Shown one piece after another: positions 579-22,887 of a stretch of 23,056 nucleotides of DNA (position 1 is the first letter of the stretch; every line of letters begins with the position of its first letter). The DNA is taken from positions 1-23,056 of the forward strand of contig CAZSVP010000001.1 of assembly GCA_964610335.1 (NCBI GenBank). The letters run 5' to 3'. A model generated the notes under the pieces. That model saw only the letters and a list, made by a program, of their open reading frames with translations, had not been told where the DNA came from and did no database searches. Source of the stretch: an uncultured Candidatus Saccharibacteria bacterium (GTDB lineage Bacteria > Patescibacteriota > Saccharimonadia > CAILAD01 > BJGX01). Made by a program: the position numbers and the translations under genes.

Positions 579-664
579 TTCACCTCCTGTTTTTTTATAA
601 CCTAATTTTACGTCAAAGGTATAAGTATTACAAAAAAAATCAAACAAACTGTAATAAGCTGATC

Positions 665-4001: not shown

Positions 4002-4008
4002 GAGCGCT

Positions 4009-4032
4009 ATTGTAACAAATTTTCAGGTTACA
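4009..4032 (-). promoter_or_regulatory. TACAAT -10 box 7 nt upstream of the alaS ATG, embedded in the 6-10-6 inverted repeat TGTAAC-N10-GTTACA.
   Basis: Complement of 4009-4014 is TACAAT. The IR arms are 4011-4016 (tgtaac) and 4027-4032 (gttaca). There are 7 nt between the -10 and the ATG, and no SD. Confidence 0.4.
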
Positions 4033-4044
4033 GTCGAGCTATCA

Positions 4045-4728
4045 CTAAAGCTTCTGAGCGTTATTAAATGCTTGTAGTAATGCGGCTTTCTGAGTGTTTT
4101 GCATATTGATAGTGGCTTGATTGTTACTACAGTTGGCCTGCGGGGGAGCATAGCCAAGCACAAAACCGCTCAAGGCTTTTTGCTGGGTTGAACCAGCCTC
4201 ACTAGCATTGGCAAACTTACTTATAGCCCCAAGAGGTAGGGTTCCCAAACTGCAGTACTTACCTGCATCACTACTATCTGCTCCCCATGCGCTGCTTTGT
4301 AGGGCTCGCGTCGAGAAGAATGTAGTCTTGTCATTTACAAAATACTGTAAGTCACGTATAGAGTCGGTGAGTGGTATCTTGTATCCCAGTTCCTTAACTT
4401 CTAAGAAATTTGAGTTGCTCACCGCACTGCTGACAGCAGAAGCAGCAGCATTGGTTGCTGCAGCCGCTGCAGCGCTGGCAGCATCTTCGAGTGTCTTCTT
4501 CTTGTTACTAAGATCGTCAATTTGGGCCTGCTGGTCCTTGATCTGCTTGTTAAGCTTTTGCATGCTCATGTAGCCATATATACCAAGGCCAATCAAAGCT
4601 ATAATTGCCACAATAGCCACAATCATCCATACTTTGGCCGCTTGTGATTTCTTGGGCAAATCAATAGTGTCTGGCATGTCTTTCTTATGTAACTCTGGCT
4701 TGGCTGATTTTTTCTTTTCCTCTGGCAT
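4045..4728 (-). CDS. Hypothetical membrane-anchored protein: Lys-rich cytoplasmic N-terminus, one TM helix, a coiled coil, a poly-Ala/Ser linker, and a C-terminal domain with 2 Cys.
   Basis: AGGAGA RBS (complement of 4733-4738) about 5 nt upstream of the start at 4728. TM segment 'VWMIVAIVAIIALIGLGIYGY'. 'AASAAAAAATNAAASAVSSAVS' low-complexity stretch. No recognisable catalytic motif. Confidence 0.6.
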   Translation of the reverse strand: MPEEKKKSAKPELHKKDMPDTIDLPKKSQAAKVWMIVAIVAIIALIGLGIYGYMSMQKLNKQIKDQQAQIDDLSNKKKTLEDAASAAAAAATNAAASAVSSAVSNSNFLEVKELGYKIPLTDSIRDLQYFVNDKTTFFSTRALQSSAWGADSSDAGKYCSLGTLPLGAISKFANASEAGSTQQKALSGFVLGYAPPQANCSNNQATINMQNTQKAALLQAFNNAQKL

Positions 4729-4743
4729 AATATCTCCTAATAT

Positions 4744-5478
4744 TTATGTATTGTATTTTGATTTAAACTCTGCCGAAACTCGTTTGGCTGATTCAATCGC
4801 AACCGTCATACCATCTTGCTTGGCTTTTTGATCAGGCATAGGATTTTGCTCAAAGAACCGATCAACTTGCTTTTGCAAAGTGTTAGCTACATCAGTCATA
4901 CTCTCGGCGCTACCACTAATTGTATTGATGGCCTCAGTAAACCGAGCATTGATATCTTGATACTGTTTGGCATCTATTTTTTCCGCGACCCCTGATTCCA
5001 GCAATCGCCCATCGCGATCTATCCCCTGTGCAGAAAGCTCCATCTGAGTAAGTCCAGTAGTGGTATCGACATAGAGCTGTTCCAATGCTGGATTTTCACC
5101 TCGTCCAACAATTGCGCGAAGTGCAGATACTACAGATTCAAATGATCGTGCTAGTTTAGCAGCTTGCTCACGCAATTCAGAAGCTTGGAGTTTAAGATTC
5201 TGCTCCATCTTCTTAAGCTGCTCTTCGGTCATACGATCTTTTTCGGAATCATCTTGATCTTCTTCAGTTTGTTCTGCAGCACGGTCTTCGGTTTCATTGC
5301 TGGGTTTAGGCGCTTCAACTGTTCCCAGCTGCGATATATCTGGGTGTTCGTAAATAGGATGTACTTCGCTATTCTCAGCTTGTAAATTCTTCAATTGAGC
5401 GGCTAGTTCTTGCTCTCGGCTGAGATTGCCTTCAACTTTCTTGGCTGGATCTGGCGGAAAATCAGATGGATCGGACAT
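4744..5478 (-). CDS. Hypothetical acidic coiled-coil protein (244 aa), soluble.
   Basis: AGGAGGG RBS (complement of 5483-5489) upstream of the ATG at 5478. Glu/Gln/Lys-rich heptad-like sequence 'EEQLKKMEQNLKLQASELREQAAKLARSFESV'. No known domain recognised. Its stop lies 15 nt from the next gene, so it is likely co-transcribed with 4045-4728. Confidence 0.6.
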   Translation of the reverse strand: MSDPSDFPPDPAKKVEGNLSREQELAAQLKNLQAENSEVHPIYEHPDISQLGTVEAPKPSNETEDRAAEQTEEDQDDSEKDRMTEEQLKKMEQNLKLQASELREQAAKLARSFESVVSALRAIVGRGENPALEQLYVDTTTGLTQMELSAQGIDRDGRLLESGVAEKIDAKQYQDINARFTEAINTISGSAESMTDVANTLQKQVDRFFEQNPMPDQKAKQDGMTVAIESAKRVSAEFKSKYNT

Positions 5479-5515
5479 ATACCCTCCTAAGTAATTTGCT
5501 TGTGATTATATCACC

Positions 5516-6589
5516 TTATTTGCAGATAACACCACCACCAACTACAACATTACCATCGTAGAACACGGCCGACTGGCCTGGTGCGATAGCTCGCTCAGGA
5601 GCCTTGAGCACAACTCGCCATGTATCATCTCTAATCAGCTCAATATTGCATGGCATAGTCTTGCTACGATAACGGACCCTTACCTCTAACTTCTGCATTT
5701 TGCCTTCTGTCTTGCTTGTAACCCACCATACACGGTCGGCTATTACGAACTCGGTTCTGTTAAGTAGTGGCGAGTCTTCATCGGATGTAACACGTACAAT
5801 ATTATTCTTGGTATCAACCTCGTAAACAAAGTATGGTTGACCACCACCGATTCCAAGACCATGACGCTGGCCAATAGTATAGCTAAACGCACCGTTGTGT
5901 TCGCCAAGTTTGGTATCAGACTCATCGACTATGTCACCAAGCTTTGGCTCAATAAACTCACTCAAAAAATCACGCATAGGCACATTGCCTACGAAACACA
6001 GGCCTTGGCTATCAGGGCGCTTAGCGGTTGGAAGATCGTATTTCGACGCTAGCTCTCGCACTTCGGATTTGTGTAGATTGCCGATTGGAAATAGAACTTT
6101 TGGGGCAACACTAGGGTTCATGCGATACAAAAAGTAGGTTTGATCTTTGTTGGAATCTTTGGCGACCATAAGTTTGCCATCTTCCATCACAGCGTAGTGA
6201 CCAGTGGCTATGTAATCAGCTCCATCTTCCAAGCATTTTTTGTAGAAAGTATCGAATTTAATCTTCTGGTTGCACATCACGTCTGGGTTTGGCGTAAGAC
6301 CATTCTTGTAACTATCCAGCATGTACTGGGTGACTGACTCAAAGTAATCTTTTTCAAAGTCATATATTCTAAGTGGAATCCGCAAATGTGCTGCTACACT
6401 GCGCGCACTCGCTAGGTCCTCTTGCCATGGACAATGATGACCAGCTATATCACGACTCCAGTTCTTCATATATACCCCAACTACGCTGTAGCCCTGCTCA
6501 AGTAGTAATGCAGCAGCTACAGAGCTGTCTACTCCGCCGCTCAGACCCACAAATACAACTAGATTATTACTTCTTACTTCAGCTTTCAT
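5516..6589 (-). CDS. mnmA: tRNA-specific 2-thiouridylase MnmA.
   Basis: PP-loop 'VVFVGLSGGVDSSVAAALL', catalytic-Cys context, and conserved C-terminal domain. Confidence 0.9.
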   Translation of the reverse strand: MKAEVRSNNLVVFVGLSGGVDSSVAAALLLEQGYSVVGVYMKNWSRDIAGHHCPWQEDLASARSVAAHLRIPLRIYDFEKDYFESVTQYMLDSYKNGLTPNPDVMCNQKIKFDTFYKKCLEDGADYIATGHYAVMEDGKLMVAKDSNKDQTYFLYRMNPSVAPKVLFPIGNLHKSEVRELASKYDLPTAKRPDSQGLCFVGNVPMRDFLSEFIEPKLGDIVDESDTKLGEHNGAFSYTIGQRHGLGIGGGQPYFVYEVDTKNNIVRVTSDEDSPLLNRTEFVIADRVWWVTSKTEGKMQKLEVRVRYRSKTMPCNIELIRDDTWRVVLKAPERAIAPGQSAVFYDGNVVVGGGVICK

Positions 6590-6599
6590 AATTGTGCCT

Positions 6600-7190
6600 T
6601 TATTGGTAATTGCCGGTGAGCTGGATGTAAGCCAATTTGTATAGTTCTGACAGTGTGATAGTTAACGGAAATCCTCTACGCCACCACTGTGATTTGCTCC
6701 AACGATCATCGACGGAGCTTACACCAATTACCTTGATATCATCACCCATGACCTTGCGGAATGTTATGTTTGCCCTACGCTGGTGGTACGGACTAGTTAC
6801 CAGGATGATAGACTTAGCTCCTACCTCATCTAGAGTCTTTTTGACATTGACCGCGTTTTGATAAGTGTTTTGTGAGTCTTCGTCTATCAAAATATTCTTC
6901 GGTGGCACACCATCACCTAGCGCCTGATCACGCATAGCATAGGCATTACTTGGCCCATCATCAAGTGCTGCACCGGAGAATATCAGCAGCGGAGCATAGC
7001 TCTGCATATATAGATCAATTGCTTTGTCAGCCCGCACAGTGGTACGTCCCCCTGATATTGCCACAATTGCGTCAGCTCTCTCAAGTTTGTCCTGAGGACT
7101 TAGTATGTATCCAGTACCCAAGAAGAAGGTTAGAGCCAGCAATACCAGCCCCACAATTATTCCGGCAGACCAGGCCAAGAATTTCTTCAT
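6600..7190 (-). CDS. DUF218 (YdcF/ElyC-like) domain protein with an N-terminal TM anchor.
   Basis: 'IVAISGGRTTVRADKAIDLY' ... 'ILVTSPYHQRRANITF' matches the DUF218 pattern. N-terminal hydrophobic helix 'AWSAGIIVGLVLLALTFFL'. Confidence 0.75.
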   Translation of the reverse strand: MKKFLAWSAGIIVGLVLLALTFFLGTGYILSPQDKLERADAIVAISGGRTTVRADKAIDLYMQSYAPLLIFSGAALDDGPSNAYAMRDQALGDGVPPKNILIDEDSQNTYQNAVNVKKTLDEVGAKSIILVTSPYHQRRANITFRKVMGDDIKVIGVSSVDDRWSKSQWWRRGFPLTITLSELYKLAYIQLTGNYQ

Positions 7191-7197
7191 GCCTACA

Positions 7198-8379
7198 TTA
7201 TACCTGACTACTGTCAGGCAAGTCCTGTTTAGAGCTTAACCGTTTAACCACGCCGGCTAATTCTCGTGCAAAATCTTTCACCTGTGAGATGCTAGTTTGG
7301 CGACCAAAACTTACACGTAAGCTACCTTGTGCTTGTTTCTCAGAATATCCCAAGGCTAACAAAGCCTGGCTAGGCTTGTCACTACTTGCCTCGCAGGCGG
7401 CACCAGTTGATACTTCGTAGCCTGCAGCGTCCAGATAAGCTACCAAGTCCTCACCATTCAGACCATCAAATATTACACTAACTACGTTATGAAGTCGCTT
7501 ACTACTGTGTCCAGTTACCGTAGGCTTCAGCTGAGTTTGGATGCCATCTATCAAGCATTTGTATAAGCTTTCAAACTTAACTTCATCTTGGTGTCGTGAT
7601 TCTTGCACTATTCTTAGTGCCTCAGCCAAACCGGTAACCTGATTAATATCTTCTGTGCCTGCGCGCAAGCCATGCTGTTGACCACCACCAAATATCAGTG
7701 GTTGTAGCTTGGTACCACGCTTGATATATATTGCTCCGACGCTTTTGGGACCATACAGCTTAGCACCACTAATTGTTAGCATATTCACTCCGAGTCGTGA
7801 TACATCACAGCTAAGCAGGAGCGCAGCCGCACTAGCGTCAGAATGAAAAAGTATTTGCTTGTTATACTTCTTCTCGTGTTCTCGAATGATAGCGTTAATC
7901 TTACTTAGTGGCTGGATAGTGCCAATTTCACTATTGGCATAGCTAATAGTGACAAGTATGGTATCTTCCTGTAGACATTTAGAAAATTCATCCAAATCTA
8001 CTAGGCCAGTTTGATCGATTGGGCAGTTTGTGACTGTGAAGCCCTCAGCCTCAAGCTGCTTAAGCGGACCGCGTACCGACGTGTGCTCGGTGGCAATACT
8101 TACTATATGTCCATTTCCTACAGCTCGAGCCGAGCCTAGAATCGCCAGATTATTACTCTCAGTTGCACCGCTCGTGAATACTATCTCGTCGCTATTGGCG
8201 CCCAAAAACATTCCCACTAGTTTGTGAGCCTCAACAAGATTCTCATTGGCTAGCCGGGCAGATTGATACATTGCCGATGGGTTAGCAAAGCTTGCTTGGG
8301 ATTTTGACATAACGTCAGCCACTCGCTCATCAAGCGGGGTAGCGGCGGCATAATCCAAATAAACTCTAGCATTTTTCAT
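7198..8379 (-). CDS. iscS: Cysteine desulfurase (class V aminotransferase, IscS/NifS type).
   Basis: 'YLDYAAATPLDERV' N-terminus, PLP-lysine context 'TISGAKLYGPKSVGAIYIKRG', active-site Cys loop 'VSTGAACEAS'. Two genes downstream is mnmA, its expected sulfur acceptor. Confidence 0.85.
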   Translation of the reverse strand: MKNARVYLDYAAATPLDERVADVMSKSQASFANPSAMYQSARLANENLVEAHKLVGMFLGANSDEIVFTSGATESNNLAILGSARAVGNGHIVSIATEHTSVRGPLKQLEAEGFTVTNCPIDQTGLVDLDEFSKCLQEDTILVTISYANSEIGTIQPLSKINAIIREHEKKYNKQILFHSDASAAALLLSCDVSRLGVNMLTISGAKLYGPKSVGAIYIKRGTKLQPLIFGGGQQHGLRAGTEDINQVTGLAEALRIVQESRHQDEVKFESLYKCLIDGIQTQLKPTVTGHSSKRLHNVVSVIFDGLNGEDLVAYLDAAGYEVSTGAACEASSDKPSQALLALGYSEKQAQGSLRVSFGRQTSISQVKDFARELAGVVKRLSSKQDLPDSSQV

Positions 8380-8386
8380 TTGGTGG

Positions 8387-8415
8387 ATTATAACCTGATA
8401 AGGCTATATTTTCAA
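8387..8415 (-). promoter_or_regulatory. Promoter TTGAAA-17-TATAAT with the -10 box 7 nt from the iscS ATG (leaderless-type).
   Basis: Complement of 8410-8415 is TTGAAA (it overlaps the upstream stop codon). Complement of 8387-8392 is TATAAT. There are 7 nt (CCACCAA) to the ATG at 8379 and no SD. Confidence 0.5.
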
Positions 8416-9110: not shown

Positions 9111-9891
9111 GGAACAACTCCTTGGTGTTATGGTTGGTTTGATTTACTAGCTGATCGAGCTTGGTGCCACGTAGATCACTTAGGAAATCTGCTATATATA
9201 TGAGATTGGCTGGTTCATTGCGCTTTCCCCGCACTGGCAACGGCGCCAAGAATGGGCAGTCAGTTTCTAGCAGTAACTTATCCTCCGGGATTGCCTTAGC
9301 AGCCTCGAGCTGGGTATGGTCCTTGGTAAAAGTCATGATACCGTTGAGGCCATAATACAAGCCGAACTGGTTGGCTCTCTCTACAACTGTGCCATCGCCA
9401 GTGAAACTATGGATCACCCCACGCAACTTGTGGTGAGATTTGATAATGTCAAAGAAATCATCCCAGCCGTCACGAACATGGAAGATTATCGGTAAATCAT
9501 ACTTTAGCGCCAATCCGATTTGGAATTCTAGCGCGAGCCGTTGTTCAGACTTGGTAGAAAAGTTCTTGTAGTAGTCTAGTCCACACTCTCCTATAGCAAT
9601 CGGCTTAGTAGTTAGATCTTGACCATCAACCAAATCCTCAATCGTGAGCAGAGCATCACTACCCTTGTTGGCATCATGTGGATGCAAGCCAACTGTGGCA
9701 TAAAGCTTGATGCCGCCAGCTTGTTTGAGAACAGTTTGGTCAGATACAAATTCCAATGCTCGCCGCGAATCTTCATCGTTGGTGCCAACAGTAATAATTG
9801 AATCTACTGAATTCTTACGAGCATTGGCAAAAACTTCTGAAATGTCACCGGCAAACTCTTCGAAATGTATGTGAGCATGGGTATCAATCAT
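9103..9891 (-). CDS. tatD: TatD-family metal-dependent DNase/hydrolase.
   Basis: 'MIDTHAHIHFEEF' N-terminal His motif, 'GLHPH', 'ECGLDYY', 'IIFHVRD', 'HSFTG' - the full TatD motif set. Confidence 0.9.
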   Translation of the reverse strand: MIDTHAHIHFEEFAGDISEVFANARKNSVDSIITVGTNDEDSRRALEFVSDQTVLKQAGGIKLYATVGLHPHDANKGSDALLTIEDLVDGQDLTTKPIAIGECGLDYYKNFSTKSEQRLALEFQIGLALKYDLPIIFHVRDGWDDFFDIIKSHHKLRGVIHSFTGDGTVVERANQFGLYYGLNGIMTFTKDHTQLEAAKAIPEDKLLLETDCPFLAPLPVRGKRNEPANLIYIADFLSDLRGTKLDQLVNQTNHNTKELFHA

Positions 9892-9913
9892 ATATTGTTT
9901 ATTATAACTCAGG

Positions 9914-12908: not shown

Positions 12909-12959
12909 AGTTTTACCTTGTACTCTATTGTAGCTGTAACTACACCAAAAGCACAAGGA

Positions 12960-14402
12960 CTATTTTTCGAGTCGAGGGAATAGTATGCCGACAGAACTGT
13001 CTACTTTACCATCAGCAAAGATTTGTTTGATCTTGGGGGTAGTATCAGGCAAGAATGGAGCCAGATAGTCTGCCAATACTACTATCTCTGAAGCAATGCC
13101 GCTTAAAACTTCACGCACTTTGGCCGGATCAGTTTTTTGTAACTCCCATGGTTTAGTCTCTTCAATAGCAGCGTTGAGTTCTTCAGCTCGCCTCATAATA
13201 TCGCTCAAATAATTTTCAAAAGCTAAATCTGCAATGTAGCTGTCCAGCTCAAGGTTGTTATCTACCTTGCATACATCATAACTAGCATCACAGTATTTAC
13301 TAAGCATGGCTGCGACTCGCGATACGAGATTGCCAAGCTTATTGCCTAGCTCCGTTTCGTAAACTACTTCGAATCTGTCATGGCTAAAGTCACCATCACT
13401 GCCAAACGGTATTTCTCGCAACAAGTAGTAACGTAGCGCATCGTTGCCATATTGTTTGGCTAGGTCGAGCGGATTTACAACATTGCCAAGGCTTTTACTT
13501 ACCTTTACTCCATCAATAGTGAAAAACCCATGGGCAAATACACGATGTGGTATGGCAAGACCAGCACTCCACAGCATTGCTGGCCAGTATATACAGTGGA
13601 ACTTGATAATGTCCTTGCCAACTATATGTAGATCCGCTGGCCACCATTTATCGAATTCTTCACTGCCATAACCAGCTGCCGTGACGTAGTTGAGTAGAGC
13701 ATCAAACCAAACATACGCTACTTGGGTATCATCAAACGGTAGTTTTATACCCCAAGTTTGGCTCTCGCGACTAATACTAAAATCCTCAAGCCCTCGCTCT
13801 ACAAATGCCAGTATTTCGTTGCGACGTGATGCGGGTTGAATGAAATCTGGATTGTCGAGTATGTATTGTTTGAGCTGATCTTGATACTTCGATAGTTTGA
13901 AGAAATAGTTGTCTTCGCGGATTTGTTCTGGTGCCTTGTTATGATCGGGGCACAGACCATCAACTAGGTCTTCGGGCTTCATAAAGGCCTCATGTCCCAC
14001 ACAGTAAAGGCCTTCATAAACTCCCTTATAAATATCTCCATTGTCATAAACTTTTTGAAGTATCTCTTGAACAGTAATAATATGGTCGGCATCGGTAGTG
14101 CGAATAAATCGATCATACGAAATGCCTAGCTGGTCAAAGGTGGTCTGCCATTTCTTGGCGGTTACATCAGTGTACTGCTGTATGCTCTCCCCAGACTTGG
14201 CGGCAGCGTCAACCGTTTTTTGGGAGTTCTCATCGGTCCCAGTCGCAAACAACACGTTGTTGGGGCCTAATGCCTGTCGGTAATAACGCGCCAGCACATC
14301 AGCGGCAATCGTACTATAAGCATGACCGATATGCGCTATATCGTTGATATAATATATAGGAGTAGTTACATAGAACTTATTTCTTGCGTTTCGGTTTGTC
14401 AT
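12960..14402 (-). CDS. metG: Methionine--tRNA ligase, minimal form without the C-terminal appended domain.
   Basis: HIGH motif 'IAHIGHAYSTI', KMSKS motif 'VKVSKSLGNVV', and the anticodon-binding helical domain. AAGGAG RBS 7 nt upstream of the ATG at 14402. Confidence 0.9.
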   Translation of the reverse strand: MTNRNARNKFYVTTPIYYINDIAHIGHAYSTIAADVLARYYRQALGPNNVLFATGTDENSQKTVDAAAKSGESIQQYTDVTAKKWQTTFDQLGISYDRFIRTTDADHIITVQEILQKVYDNGDIYKGVYEGLYCVGHEAFMKPEDLVDGLCPDHNKAPEQIREDNYFFKLSKYQDQLKQYILDNPDFIQPASRRNEILAFVERGLEDFSISRESQTWGIKLPFDDTQVAYVWFDALLNYVTAAGYGSEEFDKWWPADLHIVGKDIIKFHCIYWPAMLWSAGLAIPHRVFAHGFFTIDGVKVSKSLGNVVNPLDLAKQYGNDALRYYLLREIPFGSDGDFSHDRFEVVYETELGNKLGNLVSRVAAMLSKYCDASYDVCKVDNNLELDSYIADLAFENYLSDIMRRAEELNAAIEETKPWELQKTDPAKVREVLSGIASEIVVLADYLAPFLPDTTPKIKQIFADGKVDSSVGILFPRLEK

Positions 14403-16323
14403 TGATGTGCTCCTTAATTTCCATCATTTCAAGTTCGTCTACCTCTGACTCTAAACTCTTGATACGATTTCTTGAGACTCTAGATTTTACCACAGCTACC
14501 AGCATTACTCCAGATAAGAATACCACTATCAACAACCACCACTGGGTGACTGAATTGGTACGCGCTAGCGTGATAGTGCCGCCAGTAGTTTTGGAAACTA
14601 GTGAATAGTTTTGAGTATTCACAAATTCCTTACCCAGCACCAGGAAGAAACTAGCTGCTTTTTGGCCAGGGGCCAACGGTTTTAGTTGCTTTACTGTTTT
14701 GCTGGCTACCTGCAGGTTGGCATCATTGGTCGCTTGTGACTGTGGTGCAGTAATATCGGCCCAGCCAATACTGACAAATGGTAGTAGCACAAGCTGCTGT
14801 ACAGCAAGTTTTGAGTTATCGGGGATAGGAGGAATCTTTTGGACGTAGTTGAGCGTAGCATTCTCGTATTGATAGTTGAGATCGGTATTGCCAAGCGATA
14901 TAGCAGCCGGGTTGGAGTCACGCGCACCCCATATGGCAAATGTTAAGTGGTCTAAATCACTTACACCAAAGTTGCTAAACTTTTCTCCCCAGGTTGGGTC
15001 TACATTGATCCAGCCAACATTGGGTACATATGCCTCAACCCAACTATGCAGCGAATCACTCACTGAGCTAGACGGCTTGAGGTCACCAGAGTAACCATAC
15101 CCTACCGGCATACGAGCTGGAATACCAGCTGCGCGCAGCAGACTTATACTCAAATCAGAATATTCCAGACAAACAACGTTGCTAGGGTTGGTTAGGGCCT
15201 TAACACCACCTTGACGAACATTGTATTTGATCTTGTCGTTGTTGTATGTAAGTGTTTCTATTACGTAGTTATTAATTGCTTTGACTTGCTCTGCAACGCT
15301 TGTTTTACCTTGAGTCAACTCGCGCGCCTTACGCTTGATGTTAGGGTTATCCGACTGCCAATACGTTGTACTATTAGTGTAATTCCTTACCAATTCTCTT
15401 GGGATATCAGCCTTGGTGCCACTAGCAGCCAAATCATATTTCTTGTATCGAACTTCAGCCAATATGTCCGTCTGAACATTTATAGAAGTACGGGGTGGCA
15501 CTTCGTAGTCAGCCAAAATATTACCATCACTATCTAAGCTAGTAGTGGTTGGTTGCGGATTGAGCGAATTTATATACACCGACTGTGTAGGGGTGTTTGG
15601 AGGTAGAGTTACAGTGAATGTTCTGGGTAGACCGGTCTCGTTTTTAAGTGGAAACCCGAAGTTTACCTGATAAATGGTCTTGTCCCCAAATACCATGGTG
15701 ACTGGTTGGTTATTGAGCTCTTCACGAGGAAAAACATACAGTGTTTTGTCGTTGGGTGCAGGAGTTGCTACTGGTTTGACATCACTGCTTTGTAAGCTAC
15801 CAAAACTATCGGGTATAAGGACTTGGATATTATATTTGTCGCTCGAGTCAGCGGCAATTGATGGTATGTATACCGTATGCCCACCACCCTTGGAGTCAAC
15901 AAGCTTTGTAGTGTCATAGTGAACTTCAAAGGTCCATTGGTTACCAAGACCAGTGTTACGCCGGTTAAAATCTACTACTATTTGCTGATAATCATAATTG
16001 TAGCCTTTGCTTTGAGCGGTCTTTTTTTGTGTAGTGGTATGCAAACTTGTGCCATCACTATAGCTAGCCTCTAAGTTTTGCACATCATCGCTAGGAGTAG
16101 AGATTTGGATACTTTGCAGGTAGCGATTGCTTGAGTCGTTGGTGACAGTGTATCTCTCGGTAACATGCGTAACCCCTGTCACATCAACATCGTAGTTAAC
16201 TAGAACATTGTAGCGAAAGTCGTCTTGGGCATGTGCCAGTCGTATAAAAAGCAGCCCAACTATAAGTGCAAGGACTAAGAACGAAGTATACTTCAAGAAC
16301 TGTTTGTACACGGTACGCAACAT
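14377..16323 (-). CDS. Bitopic membrane protein with a large extracytoplasmic region ending in a transglutaminase-like (papain-fold) Cys-His-Asp core and a C-terminal TM plus charged tail.
   Basis: TGase-like core 'NVVCLEYSDLSISLLRAAGIPARMPVGYGY' (Cys codon at 15169-15171), 'LHSWVEAYVPNVGWINVDPT' (His, Asp). N-terminal TM 'FLVLALIVGLLFI' and C-terminal TM 'WWLLIVVFLSGVMLVAVV'. The start is ambiguous between the ATG at 16344 and the ATG at 16323; I chose 16323, which begins directly with the signal/TM segment. Confidence 0.7.
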   Translation of the reverse strand: MLRTVYKQFLKYTSFLVLALIVGLLFIRLAHAQDDFRYNVLVNYDVDVTGVTHVTERYTVTNDSSNRYLQSIQISTPSDDVQNLEASYSDGTSLHTTTQKKTAQSKGYNYDYQQIVVDFNRRNTGLGNQWTFEVHYDTTKLVDSKGGGHTVYIPSIAADSSDKYNIQVLIPDSFGSLQSSDVKPVATPAPNDKTLYVFPREELNNQPVTMVFGDKTIYQVNFGFPLKNETGLPRTFTVTLPPNTPTQSVYINSLNPQPTTTSLDSDGNILADYEVPPRTSINVQTDILAEVRYKKYDLAASGTKADIPRELVRNYTNSTTYWQSDNPNIKRKARELTQGKTSVAEQVKAINNYVIETLTYNNDKIKYNVRQGGVKALTNPSNVVCLEYSDLSISLLRAAGIPARMPVGYGYSGDLKPSSSVSDSLHSWVEAYVPNVGWINVDPTWGEKFSNFGVSDLDHLTFAIWGARDSNPAAISLGNTDLNYQYENATLNYVQKIPPIPDNSKLAVQQLVLLPFVSIGWADITAPQSQATNDANLQVASKTVKQLKPLAPGQKAASFFLVLGKEFVNTQNYSLVSKTTGGTITLARTNSVTQWWLLIVVFLSGVMLVAVVKSRVSRNRIKSLESEVDELEMMEIKEHINDKPKRKK

Positions 16324-16370
16324 GGTTCTATAATAACATGTCATGATCTGGTTTGGGCCAACTAGCTTTT

Positions 16371-17138: not shown

Positions 17139-17622
17139 CCGTTCCACCAAACTTTTCAATGTAAGCCTGTGCCCGATCAATGATTTCATCTTCTTGCTTG
17201 GGCTCGAGATTTGTCTTTTGCTTGGCTTCCTCTAGGCTTAGCCATTGTAAATCATCATGCTCATCGTCCATATGTTGATCAGCCTCACGAACATAACGAG
17301 TCAAGAAGTAATGGGTTGTTTTGTCGATCAATATATTGGTCTGCTTATTGCGCCAACTCTGAGTCATTGCTCCGAGGTAGCCAACGATCTTCACTTCAAT
17401 ACCAGCCTCCTCGCGGGTTTCACGCAATGCAGCATGCTCAATAGTTTCTCCATTGTGTAAAGTTCCTTTTGGTAAATGCCAACTGTCTACACCAAAACGT
17501 TTTTCCCCTCTATGAACAAGGGCAACTTCCCAATCACCGCTGGATTGTTTGCGCAAGGTTACAGAACCTGCCGACACGTGGTAGGGCCAATCCTTGGAGA
17601 ACCTAAATAGGTCTTTTTGCAT
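17131..17622 (-). CDS. NUDIX hydrolase.
   Basis: Nudix box 'GETIEHAALRETREEAGIEVKI' (GX5EX7REUXEEXGU). Confidence 0.85.
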   Translation of the reverse strand: MQKDLFRFSKDWPYHVSAGSVTLRKQSSGDWEVALVHRGEKRFGVDSWHLPKGTLHNGETIEHAALRETREEAGIEVKIVGYLGAMTQSWRNKQTNILIDKTTHYFLTRYVREADQHMDDEHDDLQWLSLEEAKQKTNLEPKQEDEIIDRAQAYIEKFGGTDG

Positions 17623-17629
17623 AGAGCCT

Positions 17630-17638
17630 ATTTTATCA
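17630..17638 (-). promoter_or_regulatory. Extended -10 element TGATAAAAT 7 nt upstream of the NUDIX ATG.
   Basis: Complement of 17630-17638 is TGATAAAAT. 7 nt (AGGCTCT) to the ATG at 17622. Confidence 0.4.
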
Positions 17639-17649
17639 GATTATGACTA

Positions 17650-18798
17650 TTAGAGTGGGAACTTGGGTAGGCCAAGTTTGACCGAGCAAGCTGGCCACTG
17701 ACTCCAGAATCCCCCAGCACTGGCCTTAGCGTTTTTGATAGTAATAGCGTCTTGTACATCTGGAGGAGCTAGATCGGCTCGAGCATAACCAGTGTTGTAT
17801 TTATTCCATGTACCAATAGAGAACTGATAGGCGCCATAGTAGCCATTGCCACTATTGCGCTGGTAGTCACCACCCGCTTCACACTGACGCAACTTACGTA
17901 GAATCTCGGCATTACTGGTAACTGGATCAACCTTACTGCCACGTACTATTTGTTTGGGTTGTGGTTGGGCAACTACTTGTTCTTCTATAGCGTGGCGGCC
18001 TACAGGCTTGCCGTCTTGCTGATCGACCACATAGGTAATCAACTTCTTACCTTCTACGCCAGCGAAAGTCTCTGCTGTATAGCCGAGTGGCTTGTTGGGA
18101 TCATAACTTATCTGCTCACCAGCAGGAATCGCCTCAAACTCTTGTTGTAGGCCCTGACTAAAACGAGCGATCACGATCTTCATGTTGGCTCGTATCGGAT
18201 CGGCCTGAGCAACATCCATGCGATCATTGCCTTCGAGCTTGATACCTTTTTCGGCCAGTAAGCCACCGACTGTACGTTGATTGGTACGAAATACAAATGG
18301 CTTACCACCAATCAATACATTGACTGGTGTGGCTCGAACTATGTCTATGCGACTACCGACTGCTTGTTCACCCAAGAAATCGTTGACCCTAGACTCAGTA
18401 ATAGTATCCTCTGGATAGACAGTAACACCAGCTGCCTCAACTATTTGTCGTGGGCTGCGATAACCGCTCTGGACTATGCGCTTTTTGTTACCATCAACTA
18501 CCAAGTAGGGCAATCCACGATAGACATTGATATTAGTAAGGGCTTGGCTAATCTTGGTATCACGCGCTGGCTCTACCACGTCACCCTCACTAAGTTTTAC
18601 CCCGAGCTTATCAAGTGCCTCACCAACAGTACCGGCTGACACCGGAATCGTCTTGCGCCCCCCATCGACATACAAACTCACCAGGCTTTGACCATCAGCA
18701 AAAACTTGTGAATTAATATGAATATCATCGTTGGCGTAGGCGCTAACTGCGAGCGACGCTACAGTCAACAAAGCGATCACGAGGAGCACATAGCGCAT
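17650..18798 (-). CDS. RpfB-like resuscitation-promoting-factor family protein: signal/TM, DUF348 repeats, G5 domain, and a C-terminal Rpf-type transglycosylase domain.
   Basis: C-terminal 'CEAGGDYQRNSGNGYYGAYQFSIGTW...GGFWSQWPACS' matches the Rpf/transglycosylase-like catalytic domain (conserved Glu and Cys pair). Upstream 'KKLITYVVDQQDGKPVGRHAIEEQVV' is G5-like. Repeated 'VG..L...G' DUF348-like units. The start is placed at the ATG at 18798 (signal peptide 'MRYVLLVIALLTVASLAVSAYA') rather than the track start at 18873. Confidence 0.8.
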   Translation of the reverse strand: MRYVLLVIALLTVASLAVSAYANDDIHINSQVFADGQSLVSLYVDGGRKTIPVSAGTVGEALDKLGVKLSEGDVVEPARDTKISQALTNINVYRGLPYLVVDGNKKRIVQSGYRSPRQIVEAAGVTVYPEDTITESRVNDFLGEQAVGSRIDIVRATPVNVLIGGKPFVFRTNQRTVGGLLAEKGIKLEGNDRMDVAQADPIRANMKIVIARFSQGLQQEFEAIPAGEQISYDPNKPLGYTAETFAGVEGKKLITYVVDQQDGKPVGRHAIEEQVVAQPQPKQIVRGSKVDPVTSNAEILRKLRQCEAGGDYQRNSGNGYYGAYQFSIGTWNKYNTGYARADLAPPDVQDAITIKNAKASAGGFWSQWPACSVKLGLPKFPL

Positions 18799-18835
18799 GA
18801 TCGAATTGCGAAATATATTGACTGAGGAATTACGT

Positions 18836-18905
18836 AAAATAAAAAGCCTCTTGGTTACTACCACGACACACAAATTACTAGTCAGAAGGGGCTTTTGTTT
18901 TTGTC
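18836..18905 (-). terminator. Hairpin flanked by A/T tracts on both strands. Possible weak intrinsic terminator or attenuator between the pcrA end/promoter and the rpf start.
   Basis: Stem AAAAGCC-CTT (18842-18852) pairs with AAGGGGCTTTT (18886-18896): 10 bp with one mismatch (a G.U wobble on the plus-strand RNA, C.A on the minus-strand RNA). The loop is 33 nt. The T-tract on the minus strand is TTTTTATTTT (18836-18845). The long loop and the mismatch make it weak. Confidence 0.3.
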
Positions 18906-18923
18906 TCTCTTTTACTGCAAGTT

Positions 18924-18953
18924 AGTATATGCTTTTGGCATAAGCACTGTCAA
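18924..18953 (-). promoter_or_regulatory. Sigma-70-type promoter TTGACA-18-TATACT directed toward the Rpf gene.
   Basis: Minus-strand TTGACA (complement of 18948-18953) and TATACT (complement of 18924-18929), 18-nt spacer. It sits immediately downstream of the pcrA stop, about 120 nt upstream of the rpf start. Confidence 0.5.
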
Positions 18954-18982
18954 GACGCTTATGAACACATGAATTGTTCAAT

Positions 18983-21133
18983 CTACTGCAGTTTCTTGAT
19001 AGGAGCGTAGGCTAAATTGATAGTTTTAACTCCAACTCTTCGAAACCTCACAACTACCTCTTCTTCACCGCCACCCTGGACTGTACCACGCCCAAATACT
19101 GGATGTTCTATCTCGTCACCTACCTCTAAGCTCGGGTAGCTGGCCTCTTGAGAGAACTCGTCGCTTTGTTGGCTACTGTTAAGCAAACCAGATAGCAAAT
19201 TGGCTCGGCTAGTATTGTCTACCAGCTCAGCAGGGATCTCAGCCAAAAAGCGCGACGGCACATTGTGCTGAGTGGTACCATATAACAAACGAGAGCTAGC
19301 ATGTACCATGTAGAGCTTGGTTTTGGCGCGAGTCATGCCGACATAGCACAGGCGTCGTTCCTCTTCCATCTCAGTCGGCTCAAAAAACGTCCGGCTATGA
19401 GGAAATATTCCCTCTTCCATACCTATCATAAACACCGTGTCAAATTCTAAGCCTTTGGCTGAGTGCAAGGTCATCATGGTCACAGCATCACTGCCCTCAC
19501 GCATACTGTCTACATCGGCCACCAGCGTAATCTCACTCAAAAAAGTTGCCAGATCAACAGTGTCATAATTGCGCGTTACACCCACAAGCTCAGCTACATT
19601 CTCAAGCCTGTCTTCAGCACTTGGTGTATCGTCTTGTAAGTAGCCACGGTAGTCGGTAACTCGCATGATTTCCTCAAATGTTTCACTCACCGTATGCGAG
19701 CTTGCAAATTCTTGCAATTCAACAATCATGCTAGCAAATGCGACAAAACCCTTTGTGGCTCGGGGCGTAAGTCCGTTAATCTCGCCAGCATTAAGCATAG
19801 TTTCAAGCACAGGCCGCTCAACCTTGTCGGAAGCTTCGAGCATAACACTAACACTACGCTCCCCCAAGCTACGAGCTGGTACGTTGATGATTCGCCCCAG
19901 GCTGACACGGTCGGCCGTGTTTGACACGAAGCGCAAGTACGCCAGTAAGTCTTTGACTTCTTTGCGCTCATAAAACCGTACGCCACCTATGATTTGATAC
20001 GGCATATTAAAGCGTAAAAATGATTCTTCTAGCGCACGCGATTGAGCATTGGTACGGTAAAGCACAGCAAAGTCATGTCGTGACACTCTACTGTCGGCTC
20101 GCATAGCATCTTCGATAGTTTGTACCACAAAGCGACCTTCATCGAGCTCGTCACCGACTTGAACGATTGAGATCTTGGCGCCACCGCCAGCTTCAGTCCA
20201 AAGCTTCTTATCGGTGCGATCAGTATTGCGAGCAATCACCGCATAGGCTGCATCAAGTATGGTCTGAGTACTACGGTAGTTCTGCTCAAGCTTGACTACC
20301 TTGGCGTCCGGATAGTCACGCTCAAAGTTGAGAATGTTTTGGAAGTTGGCACCGCGCCAGCTATAAATACTCTGCCAGTCGTCTCCGACCACACATATAT
20401 TACTATGCGCGCGGGCTAGTAGATGGATTAGCTCGTACTGAGCCATATTGGTGTCTTGATACTCATCGACCAAGATGTACTTGAATTGTTGCTGGTACTT
20501 TTGCAATATTGCTTCGTCGGATTTGAGCAGCTCCACCAACTTCATAATCATGTCGTCAAAGTCCATAGCATCGGCTTCGCGAAGTTTCTTTTGATAAAGC
20601 GGGTAAATGGTAGCGGCTTGCTCTTGCATCATACCGTGTGCCAATTCGGCAAACTTCTCAGGCCCAACAAGTTCATTCTTGGCGCCAGAAATCGCATAAA
20701 GCATGCCATTTGGTGTAACCTTCTTGTCATCAATATGAAGTTCCTTAAGTATTTGTTTGATAAGACTTTGGCTGTCGGCTGTGTCATAGATCAGAAAGTT
20801 ACTGGTGTAACCTATATTCTCGGCCTCCCGCCGCAATATCTTGTTGGCTATGCCGTGGAAAGTGCCTAGAAATGGAAAGTAGCTAGCGTTGTCCTCATGA
20901 AAGCCTACCAGCCTTGCTAGTCGCTGGCGCATCTCACCAGCTGCCTTGTTGGTAAAAGTTACAGCCAATATATTGGCTGGATTAACCTTCTTCTCCTGCA
21001 CTATATAAGCCATGCGGTGTGTGAGCGCTTTGGTCTTACCCGAGCCAGCACCGGCCAACATCAGCACCGGACCGTCGGTAGTTACTACGGCTTCGCGCTG
21101 CGAGTCGTTTAAACCATCCAAAATATTTGTCAT
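18983..21133 (-). CDS. pcrA: ATP-dependent DNA helicase of the PcrA/UvrD family.
   Basis: Walker A 'LAGAGSGKTKALTHRMAYIV', motif II 'ILVDEYQDTNMAQY', motif VI region, and the C-terminal 'VGDEIEHPVFGRGTV' Tudor-like tail. The start is placed at the ATG at 21133 ('MTNILDGLNDSQREAV'). A TACAAT sits 7 nt upstream, and this start avoids the overlap with the ABM gene that the track start at 21223 would create. Confidence 0.9.
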   Translation of the reverse strand: MTNILDGLNDSQREAVVTTDGPVLMLAGAGSGKTKALTHRMAYIVQEKKVNPANILAVTFTNKAAGEMRQRLARLVGFHEDNASYFPFLGTFHGIANKILRREAENIGYTSNFLIYDTADSQSLIKQILKELHIDDKKVTPNGMLYAISGAKNELVGPEKFAELAHGMMQEQAATIYPLYQKKLREADAMDFDDMIMKLVELLKSDEAILQKYQQQFKYILVDEYQDTNMAQYELIHLLARAHSNICVVGDDWQSIYSWRGANFQNILNFERDYPDAKVVKLEQNYRSTQTILDAAYAVIARNTDRTDKKLWTEAGGGAKISIVQVGDELDEGRFVVQTIEDAMRADSRVSRHDFAVLYRTNAQSRALEESFLRFNMPYQIIGGVRFYERKEVKDLLAYLRFVSNTADRVSLGRIINVPARSLGERSVSVMLEASDKVERPVLETMLNAGEINGLTPRATKGFVAFASMIVELQEFASSHTVSETFEEIMRVTDYRGYLQDDTPSAEDRLENVAELVGVTRNYDTVDLATFLSEITLVADVDSMREGSDAVTMMTLHSAKGLEFDTVFMIGMEEGIFPHSRTFFEPTEMEEERRLCYVGMTRAKTKLYMVHASSRLLYGTTQHNVPSRFLAEIPAELVDNTSRANLLSGLLNSSQQSDEFSQEASYPSLEVGDEIEHPVFGRGTVQGGGEEEVVVRFRRVGVKTINLAYAPIKKLQ

Positions 21134-21140
21134 AAATGAT

Positions 21141-21146
21141 ATTGTA
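21141..21146 (-). promoter_or_regulatory. TACAAT -10 box 7 nt upstream of the pcrA ATG at 21133.
   Basis: Complement of 21141-21146 is TACAAT. 7 nt (ATCATTT) to the ATG. No convincing -35. Confidence 0.35.
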
Positions 21147-21188
21147 CTACAGCCAAATGCATAAGCCGAATAAAAAGCGTACGGATGA

Positions 21189-21515
21189 TTATCTTTTATC
21201 TTCTGGGGGATCAGAACTGCCAATTAGTTCTGCAGAAATAATAGTTTGGTGATCGTCTACAAACTGTTCGTGATTATGCAGCATATATTCGGCATCATCT
21301 CGTTTAGATATTTCCTCAATCGCCTTGTCACGTGCTGACTTGCTTTCCCATTCTGCCATGGCAAAAAGAATTTTTGGATTGTCTAATCTGCGAAAAAGCT
21401 TAGTGCCACATGCACCTGGATATTGCTGGATTCTATCACTACCCTCCTTCCAAGCTTTAATAAAAGCTTCTTCTTTGCCGTCTTTTGGATGATGCTCAAA
21501 GACTACTCGATACAT
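21189..21515 (-). CDS. Small ABM-like (antibiotic-biosynthesis-monooxygenase / Dabb-fold) protein. Tentative.
   Basis: About 108 aa. N-terminal 'MYRVVFEHHPKDGKEEAFIKAWKE' resembles the ABM-domain beta-strand plus 'KPGKEEEF..W' pattern. The start overlaps the ppa stop (TAATG at 21513-21517). Confidence 0.45.
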   Translation of the reverse strand: MYRVVFEHHPKDGKEEAFIKAWKEGSDRIQQYPGACGTKLFRRLDNPKILFAMAEWESKSARDKAIEEISKRDDAEYMLHNHEQFVDDHQTIISAELIGSSDPPEDKR

Positions 21516-22027
21516 TACTTCTGAGCTTGTTTTTGGTAGCGCTCAATTAGCGCGTAGGCCTCAGCCTTGTCGCCCCAACCGGTGATCTTAACTTCTTTTT
21601 TCTGCAAGTCCTTGTAGTGAGCAAAGTAATGTTCTACCTTGTGCTTAACATGTCCACCTAGATCTTCAACTGTCTGAGCGTGCTCGTAGTGTTTATCATC
21701 ATCAGCTACACAGATGAGTTTCTCATCGTTCTCACCATCATCGATCATATACATCACACCAATCACTCGGCTAGGCACTACTACACCTGGGTAGAGTGGC
21801 TCGTCGATCACTATCATGGCATCGAGTGGGTCACCATCGTCCCCTAAGGTCTCAGGCAAAAAACCATAGTCATAAGGTTGCTTCATAGTAGTAGGCTGTA
21901 CGCGATCTAGAAATATCGCTCCAGTGTCCTTGTCTAGTTCATACTTGTTACCACTGCCACGCGGAATTTCAATTACAACATTGACTACTTGTGGGGCTTT
22001 GCTGCCGAGAGGGATTTTGGTTGACAT
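21515..22027 (-). CDS. ppa: Inorganic pyrophosphatase (family I).
   Basis: 'NVVIEIPRGSGNKYELDKDTG', 'PYDYGFLPETLGDDGDPLDAMIV' - the canonical family I PPase active-site residues. AGGAGA RBS upstream. Confidence 0.9.
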   Translation of the reverse strand: MSTKIPLGSKAPQVVNVVIEIPRGSGNKYELDKDTGAIFLDRVQPTTMKQPYDYGFLPETLGDDGDPLDAMIVIDEPLYPGVVVPSRVIGVMYMIDDGENDEKLICVADDDKHYEHAQTVEDLGGHVKHKVEHYFAHYKDLQKKEVKITGWGDKAEAYALIERYQKQAQK

Positions 22028-22058
22028 AAGTCTCCTTGGATTAGAATTAACTGCTACT

Positions 22059-22088
22059 ATCTTAATTGATCTGGCGCAATTCTGACAA
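22059..22088 (-). promoter_or_regulatory. Candidate promoter TTGTCA-18-TAAGAT upstream of ppa (SD-led transcript).
   Basis: Complement of 22083-22088 is TTGTCA and complement of 22059-22064 is TAAGAT. An AGGAGA SD follows at about 22030-22036. Confidence 0.35.
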
Positions 22089-22089
22089 G

Positions 22090-22872
22090 TTAATTGTTTT
22101 TGACTGTCAGATTCACTATAGTGCTAAACTCTACGTAGTTCAGGCTGGCACCACCCACTAGCAGGCCATTGATATTTGGCATATCCAAGAATGCCCGTGC
22201 ATTGTGACTAGTTACGCTACCACCATAAAGCAAACCAACGCTCTTGGTACTTGGATACTGGTTTTGTATAAAAGCTACAATCTCACTTGCCACTTCCGAA
22301 ACATCTTGTGGTGAAGGTACTTCACCACTTCCGATCGCCCAGACTGGTTCATAAGCGATCGTTACTTGATTGATCTCTGTTTGCGTCACGTGTTGCAGCC
22401 CTTCCTCTAGCTGAGCTAACACAACTCTATTTGTAAGCTCTTGTTCTCGCTCCATCAAAGTTTCGCCAATACAAAGTATAGGCTTGATGCCGTATTCCAA
22501 ACACTGTGCAACTTTGCTACCTTCTACTGCTCTCGTCTCCCCAAAATGCAGACGACGCTCAGAGTGGCCAACAATCGCGAACTCGCACATACCCTTTAAT
22601 TGTTCTGCAGAGACCTCACCCGTATATGCACCAGCTTCGTACTGACTGACATTTTGGGCACCCACTTCAATATTGTGATGATTGCTTGACTTGATTGCAT
22701 TTAGTTCTGATCGTACCGAAGTGATAGCTATATAACTTGGACACAGCACAACTTCGGCCTGTGCGCTTGGAACAATTTTGTGTGCAATACGGCTAGCTAA
22801 GCGCACTGAATCAGCAATGCTAAGTTGCATTTTCCAATTGGCGACTATCAAAGGTTGATCAATACTACTCAT
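22090..22872 (-). CDS. tpiA: Triosephosphate isomerase.
   Basis: 'IVANWKM', 'VGHSERR', 'IAYEPVWAIGSG', 'LYGGSV' motifs. Confidence 0.9.
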   Translation of the reverse strand: MSSIDQPLIVANWKMQLSIADSVRLASRIAHKIVPSAQAEVVLCPSYIAITSVRSELNAIKSSNHHNIEVGAQNVSQYEAGAYTGEVSAEQLKGMCEFAIVGHSERRLHFGETRAVEGSKVAQCLEYGIKPILCIGETLMEREQELTNRVVLAQLEEGLQHVTQTEINQVTIAYEPVWAIGSGEVPSPQDVSEVASEIVAFIQNQYPSTKSVGLLYGGSVTSHNARAFLDMPNINGLLVGGASLNYVEFSTIVNLTVKNN

Positions 22873-22878
22873 GCTTAT

Positions 22879-22887
22879 ATTCTATCA
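22879..22887 (-). promoter_or_regulatory. Extended -10 element TGATAGAAT 6 nt upstream of the tpiA ATG.
   Basis: Complement of 22879-22887 is TGATAGAAT. 6 nt to the ATG at 22872. It overlaps the pyk stop codon. Confidence 0.4.

Follow-up and report, generated by a model that had tools for sequence, protein, structure and literature searches.

Predicted start-abutting -10 promoters and leaderless mRNAs alongside Shine-Dalgarno-led genes in a Candidatus Saccharibacteria locus

Introduction

A 23,056-nt stretch of contig CAZSVP010000001.1 from an uncultured Candidatus Saccharibacteria bacterium (positions 1-23056, hereafter the window) carries about 21 long open reading frames (ORFs), all on the minus strand, at a GC content of about 45%. 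Near-consensus -10 hexamers stand 6-7 nt before the ATG of several of these genes, which raises the question of whether the hexamers are promoters of leaderless mRNAs, ribosome-binding motifs on leadered mRNAs or chance strings in AT-rich intergenic DNA. Since RNA polymerase initiates 7-8 nt downstream of a -10 hexamer, preferring a purine at +1 after a pyrimidine at -1, a transcript whose hexamer has its last T 6-7 nt before the A of the ATG would begin at, or 1-2 nt from, the AUG.

An earlier note on this DNA had read the arrangement as leaderless expression next to Shine-Dalgarno (SD)-led genes. The computational analysis described here supports that reading through a histogram of -10-to-start distances, the promoter-type flanks of the hexamers and the mutual exclusion of hexamer and SD sequence. 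We consider it very probable, on sequence grounds, that two initiation modes operate side by side in this locus, about a third of the genes having a start-abutting promoter and leaderless transcripts.

Results and Discussion

Start-adjacent -10 hexamers in the window

A near-consensus -10 hexamer was found exactly 6-7 nt before the ATG of a long ORF in seven of the approximately 21 genes, namely tpiA, pcrA, a NUDIX hydrolase gene, a transglutaminase-like (TGase) gene, iscS, a DUF218 gene and alaS. These sites, together with that of tatD, are listed below.

22870..22887, minus strand: tpiA; extended -10 TGATAGAAT (22879-22887), 6-nt spacer, ATG 22870-22872; predicted leaderless.
21131..21146, minus strand: pcrA; -10 TACAAT (21141-21146), 7-nt spacer, ATG 21131-21133; predicted leaderless.
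17620..17638, minus strand: NUDIX; extended -10 TGATAAAAT (17630-17638), 7-nt spacer, ATG 17620-17622; predicted leaderless.
16321..16338, minus strand: TGase-like; TGtTATTAT (16330-16338; TATTAT 16330-16335), 6-nt spacer, ATG 16321-16323.
9889..9906, minus strand: tatD; TATAAT (9901-9906), 9-nt spacer, ATG 9889-9891; near-leaderless, with a predicted leader of 1-3 nt.
8377..8415, minus strand: iscS; -35 TTGAAA (8410-8415), 17-nt spacer, -10 TATAAT (8387-8392), 7-nt spacer, ATG 8377-8379; predicted leaderless.
7188..7202, minus strand: DUF218; TATAAT (7197-7202), 6-nt spacer, ATG 7188-7190; predicted leaderless.
3999..4037, minus strand: alaS; -35-like TCGACT (4032-4037), CCTGAAAAT (4019-4027), extended -10 TGTTACAAT (4009-4017; hexamer TACAAT 4009-4014), 7-nt spacer, ATG 3999-4001; predicted leaderless.

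The earlier note had placed the motifs of alaS, iscS, NUDIX, pcrA, tpiA and tatD correctly, its coordinates being read on the minus strand, and the TATTAT that it mentioned close to the 16323 start of the TGase-like gene lies 6 nt before that ATG. The TATAAT-6-ATG of DUF218 is an eighth case that it did not contain. The iscS elements (TTGAAA-17-TATAAT) match the promoter consensus at 11 of 12 positions, a two-hexamer promoter scan finds GTTACA-17-TAGAAT with a TG upstream of tpiA, and a second strong -10 hexamer overlaps the pcrA spacer.

Coincidence of the motif with gene starts

When the minus strand was scored with a -10 weight matrix, 53 hexamers reached the cut-off of 6 bits (0.0023 per position). 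An ATG follows seven of these at a spacer of 6 or 7 nt and in each case begins an ORF, the seven ORFs measuring 163-716 aa; on the plus strand none of 39 hexamers has an ATG at this spacing. For a hexamer in this two-position interval at six or more of 20 gene starts, the binomial probability is about 3e-10. Counted as a raw pattern, TANAAT-N6/7-ATG is found six times in the window against about 2.2 times in dinucleotide shuffles, and all six matches (seven if TATTAT is included) lie on the coding strand with the ATG opening a long ORF. The signal is a coincidence with gene starts, not an abundance of the motif.

These counts bear on the possibility that the pattern is accidental, a product of AT-rich intergenic DNA, of upstream stop codons inside TGATAAAAT-like strings and of selective attention. 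The raw excess over shuffles is only about threefold, strings such as TGATAG and TGATAA contain stop triplets, and the DUF218 hexamer contains the stop codon of iscS. However, the match with gene starts is far from chance expectation and only one of the seven hexamers overlaps an upstream stop, on which count a stop-codon artefact was rejected.

Distances between hexamer and start were counted independently of gene callers: in stop-to-stop long ORFs, the -10 matches before all in-frame ATGs within the first 40 codons were tallied by spacer length k. The Saccharibacteria set (153 kb, 137 long ORFs) consisted of the full 29.8-kb metagenomic contig in which the window sits, including 6.7 kb of flanks that served as held-out sequence, and of six syntenic loci whose MetG homologues are 64-75% identical. 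Syntenic relatives were located through MetG and NUDIX homologues (loci L164, L166, L168, L170, L171, L172 and L173, with L173 added later as a seventh), and control and comparison loci came from MetG scans of genome and metagenome contigs, mostly of distant taxa (<=55% identity).

Matches in the 137 ORFs numbered 13 for k=6 and 18 for k=7, whereas all remaining spacers between 0 and 44 had 0-5 each (mean about 1). The earlier note had proposed such a histogram as a check, and this small-scale version of it, on 137 ORFs rather than genome-wide, gives the predicted excess at 6-7 nt (31 genes). Among 187 proteobacterial, campylobacterial and Desulfuromonadales ORFs, which include AT-rich Campylobacter and Arcobacter loci, no match was found at k=6-7; actinobacterial loci, which represent the known leaderless group and were used as a positive control, showed a TANNNT peak at k=6, and the next-closest Saccharimonadia-like loci had 15 of 46 at k=6-9. 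Ranked by the fraction of ORFs with a match at k=6-8, the Saccharibacteria loci stand near the top of more than 100 loci (10 of 29 for this contig). The held-out flanks conform as well: there is a TACAAT-7-ATG at pyk, and another two genes past the window ends also fit. A peak only 2 nt wide that is missing from the control taxa argues against coincidence, as does the conservation of hexamer and distance across orthologues (64-77% MetG identity) whose flanking sequences diverge. Together with the gene-start statistics, the histogram with its controls and the orthologue alignments effectively refute a coincidental origin, which we regard as almost certainly wrong.

Promoter or ribosome-binding site

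Because a ribosome-binding site would occupy the same distance from the start codon as these hexamers, it is the flanks that decide between promoter and ribosome-binding site. Flank features had not been used in selecting the 31 start-adjacent hexamers. The TGn of an extended -10 precedes 17 of the 31 (55%), compared to 53 of 574 other hexamers in the same DNA (9%; Fisher 1.4e-9). The best TTGACA match at 16-18 nt was 3.19/6 for start-adjacent and 2.53/6 for other hexamers (P=8e-5), with a faint ttGACa visible in the upstream positional profile. Position -1 is a pyrimidine in 25 of 31 cases versus 46 of 97 other starts (P=0.0016), which fits the preference for transcription start sites (TSSs) with pyrimidine(-1)/purine(+1). 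TSSs have been reported to be centred 7 bp downstream of the -10 (PMC12641261).

The leaderless-type starts also differ from other starts in what they lack. An SD-like 4-mer in the interval -18 to -4 was present in none of the 31, compared to 47 of 97 other starts (Fisher 6e-8). The peak is specific to ATG: it was seen before a candidate ATG in 31 of 137 ORFs, before a GTG in 2 and before a TTG in none (192, 97 and 160 candidate codons examined, respectively). The motif was found in 36 of 67 genes with a gap of 0-60 nt to the upstream neighbour and in none of 40 genes that overlap it.

These features were weighed against the possibility that TAnAAT is an A/U-rich, non-SD motif bound by the ribosome or by S1 on leadered or polycistronic mRNAs, the transcripts then not being leaderless. 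Such a motif is known from group B of the GeneMarkS-2 classification (Bacteroidetes and the Fibrobacteres-Chlorobi-Bacteroidetes group), where it precedes all genes, including internal operon genes, and so cannot be a promoter (PMC6028130). In both systems, genes without an SD carry an A/T-rich motif at about -10 relative to the start, a distance expected of a ribosome-binding site, and the dense same-strand array of the window, with 7-55 nt gaps and no terminators, makes polycistronic transcripts plausible. Candidate phyla radiation (CPR) ribosomes are moreover unusual: bS1 is short and the anti-SD has been lost in some Parcubacteria, as described in a study that covers these two features and not leaderless initiation (PMC9297842). 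On the other hand, no role in ribosome binding is known for TGn at -15/-14, for a weak -35 spaced at 17 nt or for a -1 pyrimidine, and the same TGnTAnAAT is found 20-30 nt upstream of genes such as ppa, a 244-aa gene and a DivIC-like gene, followed there by a canonical AGGAGG or AAGGAG. The use of canonical SD sequences in the same window indicates that the ribosome recognises them, and the motif never precedes TTG starts. In contrast to group B, it does not stand before internal genes, being absent from all 40 overlapping genes, and internal genes are SD-led. An RNA-level non-SD ribosome-binding site was rejected on the evidence of the TGn, -35 and -1 flanks and of the overlapping genes, and we judge this explanation very unlikely.

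The promoter-type flanks are instead those of extended -10 promoters of Gram-positives and E. coli, which share the TG at -15/-14 and a weak or dispensable -35. Classical transcripts from such promoters have a normal 5' untranslated region, whereas here the promoter abuts the start codon.

Several points weigh against reading these promoters as sources of leaderless mRNAs. A generic -35/-10 two-hexamer scan of the window showed no enrichment over shuffles, so that the support from the -35 is weak; the result fits promoters relying on an extended -10. A scan of the window for intrinsic terminators found sites no commoner than in shuffles and none between genes; since no intergenic terminators were detected, polycistronic read-through transcripts with these cistrons in an internal position are likely to coexist with those starting at the ATG. 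Many of the 31 cases are mutual orthologues and not independent, yet more than 15 gene families contribute. The DUF218 hexamer overlaps the iscS stop TAA (7198-7200), the sole such overlap among the seven hexamers. The 9-nt spacer of tatD lies outside the 6-7 nt range, and iscS, whose spacer is 7 nt and whose -1 base is a purine, could in truth have a leader of 1 nt. Where the 5' ends lie is itself something that we infer from the known behaviour of bacterial RNA polymerase.

Start codons and their annotation

Leaderless transcription depends on the start codon being the one next to the promoter, and it could be argued that the promoters are real but that translation begins at a downstream in-frame codon or after a short leader of 3-10 nt. 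Automated calls differ from the ATGs used here for NUDIX and TGase, and the spacers of tatD (9 nt) and of some orthologues (8-9 nt) would give leaders of 1-3 nt. Orthologue N-termini nevertheless coincide with the proposed ATGs of alaS, pcrA, iscS, tpiA, DUF218 and TGase, and Pfam domains begin 1-14 residues after the proposed ATGs, the UvrD domain, for example, at residue 8 of the 716-aa form of PcrA. No SD-like sequence was found upstream of the alternative starts. We therefore consider a displaced start or a short leader, as a general explanation, highly improbable.

The automated NUDIX start is a GTG 15 codons downstream, without an SD, giving 148 instead of 163 aa. Because W12, P13 and H15, which lie upstream of this GTG, are at least 90% conserved among 17 homologues, the comparison indicates that the NUDIX start is the ATG at 17622. 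For the TGase-like gene the automated start at 16344 gives 655 aa compared to 648 aa from 16323; its relatives begin with MLR or MLH at the ATG that follows the -10, suggesting that the true start is probably 16323, not 16344. The starts that the earlier note had chosen for pcrA (21133) and tpiA agree with orthologue N-termini, and those at 16323 and 17622 with orthologue N-termini or conserved residues.

In the automated annotation, at least eight genes of the leaderless type have a start other than the ATG next to the -10: NUDIX and TGase of the window, TGase in L168, L170 and L171, iscS in L171, pyk in L173 and a 249-aa gene in L164. The coordinates of displaced starts are 16321-16344 and 17577-17622 in the window, 3105/3141 in L170, 8095/8113 and 15721/15760 in L171, 136/154 in L173 and 14437/14488 in L164. 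Such calls either remove conserved parts of the protein (NUDIX) or lengthen it by residues whose codons span the promoter (TGase, pyk). Since at least eight leaderless-type genes are called elsewhere in these loci, gene callers biased towards SD sites probably assign wrong starts to an appreciable fraction of CPR proteins, and the practical consequence concerns the start-codon annotation of CPR genomes.

Conservation and change of initiation mode among relatives

Alignments of upstream regions covered seven genomes for alaS and for the TGase-like gene and six for pcrA. Upstream of the coding sequence, only the TG.TA..AT block and no more than one or two single positions are invariant; the ATG does not vary either. 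The spacer stays at 6-7 nt but differs in sequence. The alaS gene has TA.AAT-7-ATG in six of six orthologues with a variable spacer sequence, pcrA keeps TA..AT-6/7-ATG in six orthologues, and TGase orthologues have TGcTAAAAT-6/7 followed by a protein beginning MLR. The L173 locus shows the architecture at 8-9 of 17 genes, among them pyk, tpiA (TGaTACAAT-6-ATG), pcrA, an alpha/beta hydrolase gene, NUDIX (TGaTAGAAT-6-GTG), TGase, PNPOx and iscS (TATAAT-ccaccag-ATG).

Other genes start differently from one relative to the next. The tpiA gene of L171 is SD-led and overlaps pyk, and iscS of the same locus has TATAAT-6-ATG. L166, L168 and L170 show, at iscS and DUF218, an overlap or immediate contact with the upstream gene or an AAGGAG leading the start, the latter being found at DUF218 in all three; DUF218 has TATAAT-7-ATG in L172 and TATAAT-9-ATG in L164. 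The tatD gene of L164 is leaderless-type (TGtATAAT-6-ATG), and in other relatives it overlaps or abuts the upstream gene (0-nt gap in L166) without a nearby -10. Both metG and mnmA are SD-led here and leaderless-type in L002, L138 and L164. Individual genes thus appear to switch readily among leaderless, SD-led and overlap-coupled starts between close relatives (64-77% MetG identity). If true, this would be a clade in which the same gene changes its mode of initiation among close relatives.

Between tatD and iscS lies a 232-aa gene that is also present in L164 and L173 and absent from the other four relatives. The iscS gene downstream of it has its own TTGAAA-17-TATAAT, and in several relatives iscS overlaps tatD.

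Immediately upstream of the extended -10 of alaS, the sequence CCTGAAAAT (4019-4027, minus strand) is conserved in six of seven genomes (also L164, L168, L170, L171 and L172). It is too close to the -10 for a -35 element. In E. coli, alaS is autoregulated, and by analogy CCTGAAAAT may function as an operator, with autoregulation of alaS as one example.

The arrangement -10-6/7-ATG was also seen at pcrA, metG, tpiA, mnmA and other genes in further CPR lineages and in other metagenomic loci. These include Berkelbacteria (L048 219) and Buchananbacteria (L078 754 and 7296), with the architecture at pcrA and metG, and several genes of L002 and L138. The pooled loci of other CPR show a modest excess only.

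SD-led genes and predicted transcription units

The genes with an SD provide the contrast within the window, and four of them are given here.

5476..5510, minus strand: 244-aa hypothetical gene; TGaTATAAT (-10 at 5505-5510), leader of about 16 nt, AGGAGG (5483-5488), ATG 5476-5478; leadered and SD-led.
4726..4755, minus strand: DivIC-like gene; -10 TACAAT (4750-4755), AGGAGA (4733-4738), ATG 4726-4728; short leader with SD.
576..610, minus strand: first gene; -10 TAAAAT (605-610), AGGAGGTG (581-588), ATG 576-578.
14400..14417, minus strand: metG; AAGGAG about 7 nt before ATG 14400-14402, without a nearby -10; internal SD-led cistron.

The start of metG overlaps the 3' end of the TGase-like gene. 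Textbook SD sites had been described for other genes of the window and they are present, with a one-base slip in one of them: AGGAGGG is at 5482-5488, not at 5483-5489, which reads TAGGAGG. Apart from the start-adjacent hexamers, three strong -10 matches lie within 50 nt upstream of gene starts in the window, at 21-28 nt, and each is followed by an SD site.

We propose the following model. A housekeeping-sigma promoter, usually an extended -10 (TGnTAnAAT) with a weak -35, would stand before tpiA, pcrA, NUDIX, TGase, iscS, DUF218 and alaS; that of tatD would be nearly start-abutting, and pyk, just outside the window, would likewise have such a promoter. On the resulting mRNAs without an SD, the ribosome and initiator tRNA would bind the 5'-terminal AUG directly, a mode of recruitment that we infer by analogy with the leaderless mRNAs of Actinobacteria, Deinococcus and E. 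coli. The leaderless genes would be first cistrons of short transcription units, headed by pyk, tpiA, pcrA, NUDIX, TGase, tatD, iscS, DUF218 and alaS. The cistrons that follow would be SD-led or overlap-coupled: ksgA after NUDIX, metG after TGase, the 232-aa gene after tatD, the fucosidase gene after alaS, an ABM-domain gene after ppa, and also the sortase gene and mnmA. A third class, consisting of ppa, the 244-aa gene, the DivIC-like gene and the first gene, would combine a promoter 20-30 nt upstream with an SD. The model provides a predicted transcription-unit map of the region that can be tested by RNA-seq.

Relation to known systems

The arrangement resembles group C of the GeneMarkS-2 classification, of which Mycobacterium tuberculosis, Corynebacterium and Streptomyces are examples. 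Group C genomes have a Pribnow box 6-8 nt away from the start of operons' first genes, an SD on other genes and about 25-50% leaderless transcripts, and have been reported mainly for Actinobacteria and Deinococcus-Thermus (PMC6028130). All the sequence features of this group are found here: a -10 at 6-8 nt, no SD on the genes concerned, promoter-type flanks and AUG as start codon (with one GTG orthologue). The likeness extends to a spacer peak at 6-7 nt, to the share of genes that fit (approximately 23-34%) and to a complete SD exclusivity. The differences are that the present genome is a small and dense one of the Saccharibacteria (CPR) with about 45% GC; that its -10 is close to a full TATAAT, frequently with TGn, in contrast to the degenerate TANNNT of high-GC Actinobacteria; and that its promoters lie in gaps of 7-55 nt, with the -35 region inside the upstream gene, and are predicted here from sequence.

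The actinobacterial or Deinococcus-type attribution implied by the earlier note did not hold. The closest MetG homologues (64-77% identity) include assemblies named Candidatus Saccharibacteria, with Saccharimonadales among the lower matches, and the loci syntenic with the window belong to Saccharibacteria metagenome-assembled genomes. Because of these MetG homologues and syntenic loci, the proteins and gene order indicate that the source organism is a Saccharibacterium (TM7, CPR/Patescibacteria) and not a member of those phyla.

For the same phylum, the sole 5'-end data of a Saccharibacterium that we found in the literature searched are those of an RNA-seq study of Nanosynbacter lyticus TM7x with 188 TSSs (PMID 35975994, as listed in PMC12641261). 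The -10-to-TSS distance is noted to be more variable in the TM7x data set (PMC12641261). Our literature search found no paper linking leaderless mRNAs with Saccharibacteria, TM7, Patescibacteria or CPR, and a prior mention is possible. The sequence evidence thus points to a known and ordinary mode of expression in a lineage for which we found no published description of it.

Whether the mode extends beyond this locus is a more tentative matter. The start-abutting extended -10 is possibly, if with slightly more doubt than confidence on our part, the main mode of expression of first cistrons across Saccharibacteria and at least some other CPR/Patescibacteria lineages. A CPR-wide regime of this kind would be a trait of the radiation for which we found no explicit description, and it may be linked to genome compaction, as such promoters fit gaps of 10-60 nt, and to the reduced ribosome of CPR. 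Discussions of leaderless translation often treat it as an ancestral mode of initiation. Saccharibacteria have recently become genetically tractable, and TGnTAnAAT-6/7-ATG as a native expression module would allow compact construct design.

Gene content and other features of the window

From the 5' end of the minus strand, Pfam identifies, in order, tpiA, ppa, the ABM-domain gene, pcrA/uvrD, an Rpf-like gene (DUF348-G5-transglycosylase), the NUDIX hydrolase gene, ksgA, the TGase-like gene, metG, an 813-aa hypothetical gene, a sortase gene, tatD, the 232-aa hypothetical gene, an iscS-like gene, DUF218, mnmA, the 244-aa hypothetical gene, the DivIC-like gene, a short alaS, an alpha-L-fucosidase gene and one further gene. 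Both AlaRS (607 aa) and MetRS (480 aa) are short proteins.

Between pcrA and the Rpf-like gene, at about 18834-18896 (minus strand), there is a hairpin of the form AAAAGCC.CUU...AAG.GGCUUUUU followed by a U-run, which is kept in L173 and lies downstream of a promoter-like TTGACA-18-TATACT (18924-18953). A role as terminator of pcrA or as attenuator within the rpf leader is conceivable. Riboswitches occur in actinobacterial rpf leaders. None was found in the pcrA-rpf spacer: Rfam gave no match on the whole window, nor on this spacer at a lenient threshold, and the rpf leader's fold does not exceed those of shuffled sequences in stability.

Directly downstream of alaS lies a GH29 alpha-L-fucosidase gene (665-2152, minus strand; Pfam E=3e-86), which is SD-led (GGAGG). 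It is missing from this position in all six syntenic relatives that reach past alaS (L164, L166, L168, L170, L171 and L172; L173 ends earlier). The fucosidase gene therefore looks like a lineage-specific insertion.

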